58,629 nt of DNA from a virus (IMGVR_UViG_3300010384_000006), one strand, 5' to 3'; counted from the first letter of the stretch, positions 10,605-15,363 are shown. Notes: generated from the sequence alone by a model not told the origin. Made by a program: numbers and translations.

Positions 10605-11351
10605 ATGCCCCCCACCGTCACGCAACTGATCGCCCGGCATGCACCGACCGAGGGCAAGCAGCCCCTCAGCGGTGACGTGACCGGGCGCTGCTATATCTGC
10701 GCGCTGCCCACCGAGCGAGGACAGCGCCGTCCGCCGTCATCGGCTTTCACCGCCTGGGCTGCCTGTGCCGAAGGGGACGTCCTCTGCCCGGACTGCGCGG
10801 CGACATTGAATTATCGCGATGTGCGCATGTTCTCCTGGCTGGTAACCGAGAACGCCTTCCGCGTCGAGGGGCGCGGGGACCGGGACTGGCTCTGGGATGT
10901 GCTGGCCGATCCGCCACCGCCGCCGTACGCGCTCTACGTCACCAGGGGCGGGCAGAAACAGGGCTGGATCAGCGGCGTGCGGCAGGTGGCGACCAGCCGC
11001 GACCGCATCCCGATCCTGACCGACTGGACAGACCGGCCGATCGTGCTGACCCGTGCCGACTGGGAGCGCTGGGCGCCACTCGTGGAGCGCATCCGGGGCT
11101 ACGGGATCGGGCGGACGGCGGTGGAGACGGGGGAGTACACGGCGGCCCAGTGGAGCAAGGCCGTCAAGCTCGGGTACGTGGATGATCTGATCGCAGCGCA
11201 GCAGTACGCGGGGGACCCGCGTTGGGAAGTGATCGCACATGCAAGCCGAAAGCCAGACACCGACACTGGACAATCCGCTCTCGCCGCTCCTCTCCCAGCC
11301 GGGGAGAGCGGAGACTATCGCCCTCTTGGCCTCGATCTACAAGTCGGTTGA
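10605..11351 (+). CDS. csf1: Type IV CRISPR-associated Csf1 (Cas8-like large subunit)
   Basis: 248 aa. N-terminal zinc finger CYIC...CPDC. GAGGA RBS. First gene of a csf1-cas11-csf2-csf3 array of genes. Confidence 0.65.
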   Translation: MPPTVTQLIARHAPTEGKQPLSGDVTGRCYICALPTERGQRRPPSSAFTAWAACAEGDVLCPDCAATLNYRDVRMFSWLVTENAFRVEGRGDRDWLWDVLADPPPPPYALYVTRGGQKQGWISGVRQVATSRDRIPILTDWTDRPIVLTRADWERWAPLVERIRGYGIGRTAVETGEYTAAQWSKAVKLGYVDDLIAAQQYAGDPRWEVIAHASRKPDTDTGQSALAAPLPAGESGDYRPLGLDLQVG

Positions 11352-11616
11352 CTGGGCCAGGCAGGGCGGAGCCTCGGTGCTGGATCGCTGGTCCGGCATG
11401 GTGATGGTCGCCAGCCGGGCGGAGACGATCGGCGAGTTCGCCAACAACCTCTGCAAGCGGCTGGGCGTGGGATCTACGTACCCGGCGGCAGAGCTTGCCG
11501 ATGCCGTGATCGCGATCGAGCCGTACGAGATGGACATCCTCGACTGGATCGATCGTGAGGCGATCCCGGTGGCGATGATGGCCTACGCCAAGGCCAGGGA
11601 GGACCGGGCACGATGA
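11239..11616 (+). CDS. cas11: Cas11-like small subunit (type IV-B); start uncertain between 11239 and 11326
   Basis: Small, helical-looking ORF between csf1 and csf2. Overlaps the csf1 3' end in another frame. Stop overlaps the csf2 start (ATGA). Confidence 0.5.
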   Translation: MQAESQTPTLDNPLSPLLSQPGRAETIALLASIYKSVDWARQGGASVLDRWSGMVMVASRAETIGEFANNLCKRLGVGSTYPAAELADAVIAIEPYEMDILDWIDREAIPVAMMAYAKAREDRAR

Positions 11617-12473
11617 GACCGATCACCTATCGGGGGACGCTGACGGCGGCCTCGGAAATCCATCACGGCGGTGACGAGCAGACGGGCAACGTCCGCCTGC
11701 TCCGGACGGTCAAGGTCTGGAGCGCGGCTGACGATCGCATCGTGCGCCTCCCGGTGATCTCCGGCAATGCGATCCGGGGCGTGCTCCGGCGCAAGCTGAT
11801 GGAGGACATGCTGGAGCGGATCGACTACGGGCCGGTGTCGCCGAAGCTGCACCACGCGCTCTACACGGGCGGTGTCCTGGAGAGCACCGACGGTTCCGGC
11901 GCGCTCGACCTGCCAGCGCGGCGCAAGCTCTCCGACACGATCCCGCCGATTGCCCTGCTCGGCACGGCGGTACTCAATGACATGGTGCCGGGGCAACTCA
12001 AGGTCGATTTCGCGCGGCCCTTCTGTCGCGAGACGGCGGCCCTGCTGGCCAGAGCGGGCTATGACGATCCCCGCATGCGCACCAATGCCCGCGCCTTCCG
12101 GGATTTCACCTTCACAACCCGGTATGACGATCTGCGCGAGGGCGACTCGCACCAGATGATCGTCACGTTCGAGTATTTCGCCGCCGGGACGGCGTTCGCC
12201 CACGCCTTCCACCTCAAGCACCCGACGCCGATCCTGCAAGCATCTGTGGGGGCGATGCTGGAGGTCTGGGCTGCCGACCCGGTGATCGGCGGCAAGGCGG
12301 CGGGCGGCTTCGGCCAGTTGATCCTCGATTACCCGGACGCGCCAGACCCGACGCTCTACTACGACTATCTGGAGTCGAGCGGCGATGTGATCCGGGGCGT
12401 GCTGGACGATCTGGCACGACGGCTGGAGGGCAAGCCGAAGCCGGGGGTGCTCAGTGCCGACATCCTCTTCTGA
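11613..12473 (+). CDS. csf2: Type IV Csf2 (Cas7-family RAMP backbone subunit)
   Basis: 286 aa. RAMP hallmarks: EIHHGGDE, PVISGNAIRGVLRR, glycine-rich loop GGKAAGGFGQL. Confidence 0.75.
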   Translation: MRPITYRGTLTAASEIHHGGDEQTGNVRLLRTVKVWSAADDRIVRLPVISGNAIRGVLRRKLMEDMLERIDYGPVSPKLHHALYTGGVLESTDGSGALDLPARRKLSDTIPPIALLGTAVLNDMVPGQLKVDFARPFCRETAALLARAGYDDPRMRTNARAFRDFTFTTRYDDLREGDSHQMIVTFEYFAAGTAFAHAFHLKHPTPILQASVGAMLEVWAADPVIGGKAAGGFGQLILDYPDAPDPTLYYDYLESSGDVIRGVLDDLARRLEGKPKPGVLSADILF

Positions 12474-13910: not shown

Positions 13911-14634
13911 CCGCCTCTACGCCATCGGCGACACGCACGGGCACCTGCGCGAGACGCGAGCGCTCGTCAAGCAGTTGGTCGCCGAGGGCATGGAGCCAGA
14001 ACGGGATACCGTCGTCTTCCTGGGGGATTACGTGGATCGCGGTCCCGATGTGTGCGGGCTGGTCGCCTACCTGATGCTGTGCCCGGCGCACTGGGTCTTC
14101 CTGCGCGGCAATCACGATCAGATGTTGCTGGATGCGCTGGAGCGCCCGTGGGAGGATCGTCCCTTCCTTCGCTGGTTCACCGCCGGGGGCCGGGAGACCT
14201 GGTACAGCTACATCTCCTCCCGCAACCGGCATCAGCTGGTGACAACATACCCGTGGCATCACACCGATGCCGACCGGCTGGCAATTGCGAGCGACATCCC
14301 GGACGATCATCTCGCATGGCTGGAGGCGCGGCCCCTGTGGCACGAGACGGACCGGCATCTCTTTGTCCATGCCGGATTGCGGCCGGGCGTGGCGCCAGCG
14401 GATGCGCGGCCCCGCGATCTGCTCTGGATGCGTCGGGAGTTCATTGCCTCCGATCACGACTGGGGCAAGATCGTGGTCTTCGGGCACACCACGCAGCGGG
14501 CGCCGCTGGTATTGCCCAACAAGATCGGCATCGACACGCTGCAGTATCCCAATGGCTCTCTGACGGCGGTCCGTCTCGACACGGCAACCCCGGTGTTCTT
14601 TGCGCAGCCGCTGCTGGGAGGGTGCGATGGTTGA
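13897..14634 (+). CDS. Calcineurin-like metallophosphoesterase (lambda PPase / ApaH-like)
   Basis: Motifs GDTHGH, GDYVDRG, GNHD, VHAG and GHT. Start overlaps the cysH-like stop by 14 nt. Confidence 0.8.
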   Translation: MPRDSRLYAIGDTHGHLRETRALVKQLVAEGMEPERDTVVFLGDYVDRGPDVCGLVAYLMLCPAHWVFLRGNHDQMLLDALERPWEDRPFLRWFTAGGRETWYSYISSRNRHQLVTTYPWHHTDADRLAIASDIPDDHLAWLEARPLWHETDRHLFVHAGLRPGVAPADARPRDLLWMRREFIASDHDWGKIVVFGHTTQRAPLVLPNKIGIDTLQYPNGSLTAVRLDTATPVFFAQPLLGGCDG

Positions 14635-15013
14635 GGTCTGGCTGGTGGGCGTAGGGCGCAATCTCAATCGGGCGGTCCGAACATGTGCCGCCTTCGGCGT
14701 GTCGCGGCTGGTCATGCTCAACTGTGACGAGGCGTGGCTGACAGGCAATGTCTACAGTGCTGCGGGCAAGGTGGAGATTGTCCGCGCGGAGACGTGGCCG
14801 GATGCCGCCGGGACGCTGGCGTTGGAGACGTACGCCACGATGCCGATTCGTGAGGTCCCGTGGGAGCACGTGCAACGGATCGTGATCGGTGGCGAGACGG
14901 CCGGGTTGCCGCGCGGCATGGCGGCGGAGTGGTGGGCAACGATCCCGCAGGTCAGCGGGCCCGGCCTCACGGTGGAGGCAGCGCTGGCGATCGCCTTGTA
15001 TGAGGCGTCCTGA
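14627..15013 (+). CDS. SPOUT (SpoU/TrmH/TrmL-like) RNA 2'-O-methyltransferase
   Basis: 129 aa. Motifs NLNRAVRTCAAFG, IGGETAGLP and IPQ...GLTVEAALAIALYE. Overlaps the upstream stop by 8 nt. Confidence 0.75.
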   Translation: MVEVWLVGVGRNLNRAVRTCAAFGVSRLVMLNCDEAWLTGNVYSAAGKVEIVRAETWPDAAGTLALETYATMPIREVPWEHVQRIVIGGETAGLPRGMAAEWWATIPQVSGPGLTVEAALAIALYEAS

Positions 15014-15363
15014 TGGTCGCCCCACGAGAGTGCCCAAACCACGGCGCGCCGTGGACGCTTGCCAACGACTTTGCCCTCATGAGCATGATTGGCACGATGC
15101 GCGCCGAAACCATTGCCCGCCGGATGGGGCGCACGCGGTGGGCGATCCTGCGGCGTTGCCAGCGGCTCGGACTCAGTGCGAGCAAGGATGGCGTCGTGAC
15201 GAGCGGCATCGCATCACAGCTGACCGGACTCTCGCCGCAATACCTGACCCGGCTGGCTCGGCAGGGCAGGATCGCAGCACGGCGGCTACCCGGAGGCAGG
15301 TGGTGGCTCTTCTCCCGCGTCGCCGTGGTGGAGCTGGGCCGGACACGAGGCTGGGCGGCCTAG
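15013..15363 (+). CDS. HTH DNA-binding protein (two HTH-like segments)
   Basis: 116 aa, TGATG-coupled to the SPOUT gene. ETIARRMGRTRWAILRR and IASQLTGLSPQYLTRLARQGRIAARRLPGGRWW. Confidence 0.6.
   Translation: MVAPRECPNHGAPWTLANDFALMSMIGTMRAETIARRMGRTRWAILRRCQRLGLSASKDGVVTSGIASQLTGLSPQYLTRLARQGRIAARRLPGGRWWLFSRVAVVELGRTRGWAA

Follow-up and report, generated by a model that had tools for sequence, protein, structure and literature searches.

Ever since its definition, the type IV-B subtype of CRISPR-Cas has posed the question of what it does, and the locus described here raises it in a particular form: what would a type IV-B operon carried by a phage do with a phosphatase and an RNA methyltransferase relative of its own? 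The locus is located in IMGVR_UViG_3300010384_000006, a 58.6-kb JGI metagenomic contig with a G+C content of 64%, which was analysed over its full length of 58,629 nucleotides (nt) and is referred to as the window. New here is a type IV-B operon extended by a phosphatase and SPOUT accessory module, namely a lambda-phosphatase-like metallophosphoesterase (MPE) and a mini-SPOUT methyltransferase of the SpoU/TrmH class. We favour, with a probability of about 0.6, the reading that these two proteins form a genuine accessory module of the phage IV-B operon, probably acting on RNA held by the Csf complex. The cassette does not appear to be random cargo, because the SPOUT family is dedicated to type IV-B and is habitually paired with phosphatases.

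Eight genes were predicted at the locus, in the order csf1, cas11, csf2, csf3, cysH-like, MPE, SPOUT and a helix-turn-helix (HTH) gene. All genes that define type IV-B membership were found, including csf1, a cas11-like gene, csf2, csf3 and an adjacent cysH-like gene. A sequence-only reading of this DNA had assigned the Csf set, a PP-loop enzyme, a phosphoesterase, a SPOUT protein and an HTH protein, and these domain identities are correct by PADLOC and Pfam (Table 1). The NCBIfam matches of csf2 and csf3 (TIGR03115 and TIGR03116) are partial and below the equivalog cut-offs, and the Pfam and NCBIfam scores of the HTH protein are slightly under the cut-off. The HTH orthologues in two relatives, the loci L001 and L003, are highly similar to it, and HTH is the last operon gene in the relatives; the operons of L217 and L206 also close with HTH genes. 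A total of 94 Csf2 homologues were found. No CRISPR array was found anywhere in the window, in which the short-spaced repeats are coding repeats of the tape measure gene and a two-copy repeat of the promoter region. No cas6, DinG/RecD helicase or adaptation genes were identified at the locus, and the neighbouring genes have no Cas matches.

The same reading had described 10605-15363 as a gap-free operon of eight genes, and eight plus-strand open reading frames (ORFs) with seven overlapping junctions were found there, each junction at the place claimed. The cas11/csf2 and csf3/cysH junctions are ATGA (11613-11616 and 13158-13161), the SPOUT/HTH junction is TGATG (15011-15015), and the csf2/csf3, cysH/MPE and MPE/SPOUT junctions are overlaps of 20 nt (12454-12473), 14 nt (13897-13910) and 8 nt (14627-14634). 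The csf1 and cas11 frames overlap by 113 nt (11239-11351). Automated calls in two relatives put the cas11 start later, giving a protein of 79 amino acids (aa) and a gap of 25-34 nt after csf1. The long overlap was upheld, because the substitutions within 11281-11351 are at third positions of the cas11 frame in 4/4 cases relative to L003 and in 8/12 relative to L001, the start at 11239 is kept as ATG or GTG in relatives, and the Cas11 profile alignment begins at residue 26 of the long form. A scan for sigma-70-like promoters and intrinsic terminators, which is tuned to E. coli-like signals and gives weak evidence, detected none within the operon, in agreement with a unit that is not split internally. 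At its 5' border lies a divergent intergenic region beside minus-strand tRNAs. The locus is thus a predicted single compact operon. By crude gene calls, approximately 18 of the 41 other same-strand junctions in the window genome also overlap or abut, so that gap-freeness argues for co-transcription only and not for shared function. Co-translation of the Csf genes with MPE and SPOUT, as proposed earlier, may occur.

The link of the cassette to type IV-B is carried by the SPOUT gene. The SPOUT family has members of 126-140 aa, with 40-60% identity and invariant SpoU motifs; residues N12, R15, R18, G88, E90, I106, L114, T115 and E117 are invariant in 64 aligned members. The family profile aligns across the motifs to TrmH (1zjr and 7edc). 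An exhaustive profile search against 1.84 billion representative proteins retrieved 78 SPOUT clusters at E <= 1e-10, well separated from ordinary SpoU enzymes. No PADLOC or NCBIfam model matches the SPOUT protein, and no homologues were found in PLSDB plasmids or GenBank phages. In 10/10 IMG/VR loci encoding a member, csf2 is located shortly upstream on the same strand, and all five individually inspected contexts are type IV-B operons. After 220 loci were pooled, the family was counted in 18 distinct loci (window included), in every case inside the IV-B operon. Recurrence of the linkage in other IV-B loci is therefore confirmed for the SPOUT gene (18/18 loci are IV-B) and fails for the Metallophos gene (in no other of about 138 distinct IV-B loci). 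In the 17 other loci, SPOUT is the immediate neighbour of the cysH-like gene, and three gene orders were seen (csf3-SPOUT-cysH, csf2-cysH-SPOUT-csf3 and cysH-SPOUT). Among the SPOUT loci tallied, the window alone is listed with a gene separating cysH from SPOUT. These distributions indicate that the mini-SPOUT family is a dedicated type IV-B partner.

SPOUT identity is poorly correlated with Csf2 identity (Mantel r = 0.17), and the SPOUT protein of the window is closest (56-58%) to those of loci in which Csf2 identity is only 23-33%. Joint vertical descent of SPOUT and Csf2 was rejected because the identities are uncorrelated, which suggests that SPOUT has moved repeatedly between IV-B lineages.

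The AlphaFold2 model of the SPOUT protein (pLDDT 92.8) agrees in overall fold with the alpha/beta knot class. In a Foldseek search, it matched TrmH, RlmB and TrmL with TM scores of 0.81-0.85, and it also superposes on the thiostrepton/nosiheptide-resistance methyltransferases (TM 0.8-0.85). All close structural matches are RNA 2'-O-methyltransferases, which makes RNA the likely substrate. The family has no RNA-binding extension at either end.

Phosphatases are repeatedly associated with this methyltransferase family. In 7 of the 18 SPOUT loci, a phosphatase is located beside SPOUT or fused to it. L198 carries a separate PTP-like gene exactly between cysH and SPOUT, with an HCX5R motif and scores over the Pfam cut-offs for Y_phosphatase2 and Y_phosphatase3, and in L199 and L201 the gene directly after cysH codes for a PTP-like::SPOUT fusion. 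In L124, SPOUT is fused to a HAD-like domain with a DLDGT motif (SPOUT::HAD). L069 and L081 have a small HAD-like gene directly upstream of SPOUT, not detected by Pfam and called from the motifs DxDGT, T/S-x-R and K...DD together with a match to PDB 2obb (E 1e-9). Phosphatase fusions were found in 17 of about 58 strong SPOUT family representatives (~30%), in four arrangements (PTP::SPOUT, SPOUT::PTP, HAD::SPOUT and SPOUT::HAD), and the fused PTP-like domains resemble Pfam families named for NAD+ kinase fusion and polymorphic toxin systems. Among the 138 distinct IV-B loci, the PTP and HAD profiles match SPOUT-bearing loci only (7/18 vs 0/120; hypergeometric P = 2e-7). Three unrelated phosphatase folds accompany SPOUT: PTP-like, HAD-like and, in the window only, MPE. 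Independent fusion in either order, and with folds that are unrelated, is textbook evidence of activities that share one substrate, here those of phosphatase and SPOUT. By analogy, the MPE of the window would be a third fold in the same role and position, represented by a single instance.

In SPOUT loci without a phosphatase, a protein of ~185 aa was observed between csf3 and SPOUT (L200 9447-10001, L202 9447-10001 and L206 9478-10041). In L200 and L202 this protein carries paired CxxC zinc-ribbon motifs; that of L206 has an HTH_23 domain.

The MPE contains all five metal and catalytic motifs of its family (GDTHGH, GDYVDRG, GNHD, VHAG and FGHT). It matches phrog_246, a 'NinI-like serine-threonine phosphatase', with an E-value of 8e-45, and its best PDB matches are 1g5b (lambda PPase) and 4j6o, the latter deposited as 'Metallophosphoesterase'. 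It also matches the phosphatase region of bacterial Pnkp (TIGR04075, E 1.7e-10). The MPE may act on RNA ends.

Genomic comparison with close relatives indicates how the cassette came to be there. In L003, whose Csf2 is 90% identical, the operon reads csf1-cas11-csf2-csf3-cysH-HTH, with cysH running directly into HTH. In L001, whose Csf2 is 89% identical, a 204-aa cupin gene occupies the cysH/HTH slot. The HTH gene of L003 opens with ATGCCCCACGATAGTG and overlaps the cysH stop by 14 nt. The MPE gene of the window opens with the equivalent start ATGCCCCGCGATAG (MPRDS... vs MPHDS... of the L003 HTH protein). Its start codon and first five codons have been taken over from the HTH gene, which still has them in L003, and the HTH gene of the window restarts 1.1 kb downstream as ATGGTCGCCCCACGAGAGTG. 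The two copies of an imperfect 11-nt direct repeat lie at these two starts (Table 1). Because close relatives have neither MPE nor SPOUT and the repeat flanks the cassette, the 1.1-kb pair is best described as a recent insertion exactly at the cysH/HTH junction, with both genes inside a single block, and is not ancestral to the operon of the window. Separately, comparison of L001 4361-5676 with window 13158-13910 showed that the CysH-like protein is far more divergent than Csf2. This divergence points to a recombination breakpoint inside the IV-B operon, with mosaic exchange of its accessory end.

The CysH-like protein, beside its PAPS_reduct match, shows weak Pfam matches to QueC and the PP-loop family. 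It keeps the PP-loop SGGKDS, and its C-terminal tail has no cysteine, unlike that of true CysH. Its nearest solved sequence is a FAD synthase chain. In FAD synthase, the PAPS-reductase-like domain is the FMN adenylyltransferase, an enzyme activity that places AMP on a terminal phosphate. This likeness would be a precedent for AMP addition to a terminal phosphate by the CysH-like protein. One proposal for the near-universal CysH-like protein of type IV-B is that it works as an ATP alpha-hydrolase on a nucleic acid (PMC8175902), and reviews place the key to type IV-B function in this unexplained partner (PMC8175902, PMC7038947, PMC7937560).

Under the favoured reading, RNA would be held or presented by the Csf filament. 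The phosphatase would strip a terminal phosphate, either a 2',3'-cyclic or 3'-phosphate left after cleavage or trimming, or 5' gamma and beta phosphates, and a SPOUT dimer would methylate the ribose 2'-OH. Having no extension, the SPOUT protein may rely on Csf or on the CysH-like protein to find its substrate. The CysH-like PP-loop enzyme would adenylylate a group on this RNA at the expense of ATP. The scheme would end in an RNA that is chemically marked or protected, and not in nucleolytic interference. We infer the substrate, the order of the steps and the biological purpose of this scheme, in which MPE and SPOUT may physically associate with the Csf complex; the non-interference role suggested by the sequence-only reading is likewise conjectural. 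Published work has shown that the Csf complex binds RNA, and that Csf2 has a conserved Asp positioned like the RNA-cleaving Asp of Csm3 (PMC7937560).

A far-reaching extension of this scheme, which we consider improbable and offer as speculation, is that type IV-B complexes serve not for interference but as ribonucleoprotein-templated RNA-modifying machines, combining phosphatase trimming, an AMP cap added by the CysH-like enzyme and 2'-O-methylation by mini-SPOUT. The filament would capture RNA, or select complementary RNA through the RNA that it has bound, and the CysH-like enzyme would add AMP to the terminal phosphate to give a cap-like A-pp-N end. FMN adenylyltransferase and ATP sulfurylase, which add AMP to their substrates, serve as a model for such an end. 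If true, this would be a CRISPR-derived prokaryotic counterpart of mRNA capping, of HEN1 small-RNA methylation or of box C/D guided methylation, and its uses for a phage could include protecting or disguising RNAs and neutralising the guide RNAs of the host.

Several observations weigh against a functional MPE and SPOUT module. The lambda-type MPE was detected in no other of the ~138 distinct IV-B loci, by tblastn or with a hidden Markov model of 120 sequences, and its link to IV-B is a single case. Its closest homologues (about 50-51% identity) are found in unrelated contexts, namely chromosomal loci and a phage contig on which a serine integrase is the neighbour. The MPE belongs to a very large family whose members are usually annotated as protein Ser/Thr phosphatases or ApaH, and PTP-like and HAD-like domains also act on non-RNA substrates. 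No phosphatase is present in 11 of the 18 SPOUT loci, so the methyltransferase does not strictly need one. Among the Csf2-reached IV-B loci with enough flank, SPOUT is present in only 5/85 (~6%) and is therefore optional for type IV-B function; cysH is present in 76/85. The locus set was partly gathered via SPOUT, which inflates the raw counts and leaves the exclusivity result unaffected. Finally, the cysH/HTH junction is a cargo slot, which, taken alone, would favour a 'random moron' view.

The strongest rival explanation builds on these points. It takes SPOUT alone as the IV-B partner and the MPE as an unrelated 'moron' at a permissive junction, a NinI/lambda-type protein phosphatase or an ApaH-like nucleotide hydrolase that would act on host proteins or nucleotides. 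The varied content of the junction (empty in L003, cupin in L001), the insertion scar, the uniqueness of the MPE among the IV-B loci, the phrog_246 match and the nearest homologues outside IV-B, one of them at a typical moron position beside an integrase, all fit it. We nevertheless consider it unlikely, though less so than the other rivals, because the position of the MPE between cysH and SPOUT is filled by a PTP-like gene in L198 or by the PTP domain of the L199 and L201 fusions, because three unrelated phosphatase folds beside one small methyltransferase family are hard to obtain by chance, and because the MPE and SPOUT genes share 8 nt and both lie inside one inserted block. 

A second way to read the pair keeps it on RNA and detaches it from the Csf complex: MPE and SPOUT would be a Pnkp/Hen1-like RNA repair or counter-defence set which, with the upstream Rnl1-type ligase and tRNA genes, heals and methylates tRNAs of host or phage after anticodon nucleases have cleaved them. 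The bacterial Pnkp/Hen1 system links end healing to 2'-O-methylation, and in the window a Rnl1-family ligase and four tRNA genes are located just upstream; the matches of the MPE to TIGR04075 and 4j6o agree with this. However, the ligase and the tRNAs belong to other transcription units, with the tRNAs on the opposite strand, no polynucleotide kinase was detected by Pfam, NCBIfam or PHROGs in the operon or its neighbours, no Rnl homologue was detected by profile in the other loci surveyed, and the SPOUT family occurs only in IV-B operons in the loci sampled, so that this explanation appears quite improbable. We give still less weight to a third view, in which the target of the CysH-like protein, phosphatase and methyltransferase is a nucleotide, small molecule or DNA (they might, for instance, make or destroy a modified nucleotide signal) and Csf is only a sensor or scaffold. 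Enzymes with the PAPS-reductase fold do use nucleotides and cofactors as substrates, and DndC works on DNA (PMC8175902); the Pfam families resembled by the fused PTP-like domains and the ParB_N and DNA-methylase-like accessory genes of other IV-B loci also suit it. Against it, the close relatives of SPOUT, by structure and by sequence, are without exception RNA ribose methyltransferases, and the Csf complex itself binds RNA (PMC7937560).

The region upstream of csf1 is probably the promoter/operator that drives the operon, judging from its conserved signals (Table 1), and a probable regulator of the operon, acting through these repeats, is the terminal HTH protein. The two repeat copies share only a core of ~11 nt in relatives. 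A CRISPR mini-array upstream of csf1 was considered and rejected, as relatives conserve the intervening sequence to the same degree as the repeats themselves. The palindrome is possibly an operator for the HTH protein, or a hairpin of the 5' untranslated region. In L001, it is altered on both arms (CATAAG...CTTATA).

The layout of the window is that of a predicted temperate tailed phage, in which the IV-B operon lies after the late region ends and before the integrase. Accessory genes are common in this zone of temperate phages. No isolated phage is closely related: the portal protein shares at most 28% identity with that of any isolated phage, and megablast queries with the operon and the first 25 kb retrieved no near-identical DNA from GenBank phages. 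The cysH/MPE junction has no exact match in IMG/VR. No gene record was retrieved with the exact MPE sequence. According to cluster tables, an identical MPE is present on 2 JGI contigs, and identical SPOUT and Csf2 proteins on 3. Upstream of the operon, the true start of the Rnl1-family ligase is probably the GTG at 8032, which overlaps the stop of the SLOG gene. An Rfam scan identified the four tRNAs and nothing else. This RNA-centred neighbourhood (7583-10219) could matter to the function of the operon. On the other side, the convergent 404-aa gene leaves no space for a terminator, and the same arrangement is found in L003. Within the putative tape measure ORF, coding sequence is repeated in tandem at 51956-52783 (2 x ~79 nt and 3 x 78 nt).

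Table 1. Predicted features of the type IV-B locus and of the surrounding phage genome (window coordinates; the last row gives coordinates in other loci).
Feature	Position	Strand	Remarks
csf1, type IV large subunit (Cas8-like), 248 aa	10605-11351	plus	PADLOC Csf1_0_IV E 1.3e-29, residues 1-220
cas11, type IV small subunit, 125 aa	11239-11616	plus	PADLOC Cas11_0_IV E 1.1e-12
csf2 (Cas7-like backbone), 286 aa	11613-12473	plus	PADLOC Csf2_0_IV E 8e-58
csf3 (Cas5-like), 235 aa	12454-13161	plus	PADLOC Csf3_0_IV E 7.8e-42
cysH-like PP-loop enzyme (PAPS-reductase family), 250 aa	13158-13910	plus	Pfam PAPS_reduct 52.8 bits
Lambda-phosphatase-like MPE, 245 aa	13897-14634	plus	Pfam Metallophos 62.8 bits
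Mini-SPOUT (SpoU/TrmH-class) methyltransferase, 128 aa	14627-15013	plus	Pfam SpoU_methylase 33.7 bits, cut-off 29.7
HTH protein, 116 aa	15013-15363	plus	HTH_17/MerR/excisionase-like C-terminal half
Left copy of imperfect 11-nt direct repeat, CCCCGCGATAG	13900-13910	plus	window vs L003
Right copy of 11-nt repeat, CCCCACGAGAG	15020-15030	plus	at start of displaced HTH gene
Upstream control region	10451-10604	plus	conserved in L001/L002/L003
Two ~29-nt direct repeats before csf1	10461-10489, 10532-10560		71-nt period
-10-like TAGAGT	10561-10566		
GTAAC-N-GTTAC palindrome	~10572-10588		
Shine-Dalgarno GAGGA	10596-10600		
SLOG/YspA-like gene	7583-8035		Pfam YAcAr
T4 Rnl1-family RNA ligase	7888-9081		
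Four tRNA genes (Ser-TGA, Ser-GCT, Asn-GTT, Cys-GCA)	9688-10219	minus	
404-aa gene, phrog_6160	15360-16574	minus	converges on operon, overlaps HTH stop codon by 4 nt
Tyrosine integrase	19527-20693	minus	
Primase/helicase	24444-26843		
Large terminase	37030		
Portal	38289		
Major capsid protein	43242		
1354-aa ORF, tape measure by position	49127-53191		internal coding repeats
Accessory gene examples in or just after IV-B operons	L099 5241-5918, L161 14733-15488, L121 1562-2272, L097 2666-3472		

A Csf2 relative of the window clade is encoded on 89 IMG/VR viral contigs (loci L118-L197), and type IV-B loci seem much commoner in phages and viral contigs than the plasmid-centred literature suggests. 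Other recurrent accessories among the 138 distinct loci are a ParB_N-domain protein (22 loci), a DPPW-motif N6/N4 DNA-methylase-like protein (10 loci), a family-2 glycosyltransferase (4 loci) and Cas6 (4 loci). A Cas6e-type protein (L215 8340-8888; Pfam CRISPR_assoc, E 2e-33) is encoded just after csf3 in a SPOUT-bearing IV-B locus on a 109-kb contig; from this gene, some SPOUT-bearing variants may process a defined RNA.

The IV-B accessories described in the type IV papers are the cysH-like gene and, in some loci, an ADP-ribosyltransferase. The openly searchable type IV literature makes no mention of a SPOUT methyltransferase or a phosphatase as a IV-B accessory, and the earlier view that the configuration is undescribed stands for that literature, subscription-only papers aside. 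The SPOUT variants are carried largely by phages and were seen only in metagenomic data, and their absence from PLSDB plasmids and GenBank phages may explain why they have gone undescribed. A dedicated relative of RNA ribose methylases, repeatedly paired with phosphatases, narrows the possible substrate to RNA with a terminal or ribose phosphate and gives direct experimental handles on type IV-B function.

Among known systems, the eukaryotic and viral mRNA capping enzymes offer a purely functional analogy, in which a cysteine-phosphatase fold, nucleotidyl transfer and ribose 2'-O-methylation act on an RNA end. HEN1 offers another functional analogy, as it methylates a protein-held small RNA at its 3' end. 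Neither shows homology to the transferase or methyltransferase components of the window. The MPE has its best sequence matches in the lambda protein phosphatase/PrpA-PrpB/ApaH/NinI family, all of whose catalytic motifs it contains; it differs in being embedded between a PP-loop enzyme and an RNA methyltransferase.

Pnkp/Hen1 likewise combines in one operon an MPE of the lambda-phosphatase type, an RNA 2'-O-methyltransferase and an ATP-using nucleotidyl-transfer enzyme, and this likeness suggests, by analogy, end healing followed by ribose methylation. The operon of the window, however, has no kinase domain, the covalent ligase domain is replaced by a PP-loop enzyme, the methyltransferase is a SPOUT protein and not a Rossmann-fold Hen1, and an RNA-binding Cas7 filament is present. 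No P-loop kinase was found, and the only ligase is the separate Rnl1-like gene in another transcription unit, so Pnkp/Hen1 is an analogy only.

With the SpoU/TrmH-class enzymes (TrmH, TrmL/YibK, RlmB and Tsr/NHR), the SPOUT protein of the window shares the three SpoU motifs and the predicted fold (TM 0.8-0.85), with motif 1 retaining its conserved Asn and Arg and motif 2 its GGE. Its motif 3 reads LTVEAAL, whereas that of TrmH is SLNVS. It is 128 aa long, compared with 157-189 residues for the matched TrmL/YibK chains, and has neither an N-terminal nor a C-terminal RNA-binding extension. Its family also differs from this class in being encoded only in IV-B operons, often fused to a phosphatase.

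The closest known system is type IV-B itself, as in Mycobacterium sp. JS623. The locus of the window shares its five signature genes in canonical order and, like it, has no CRISPR array, cas6, adaptation genes or helicase and is carried on a mobile element. That element is a temperate phage and not a plasmid, and the operon is distinguished by its terminal HTH gene and by the added phosphatase and SPOUT pair.

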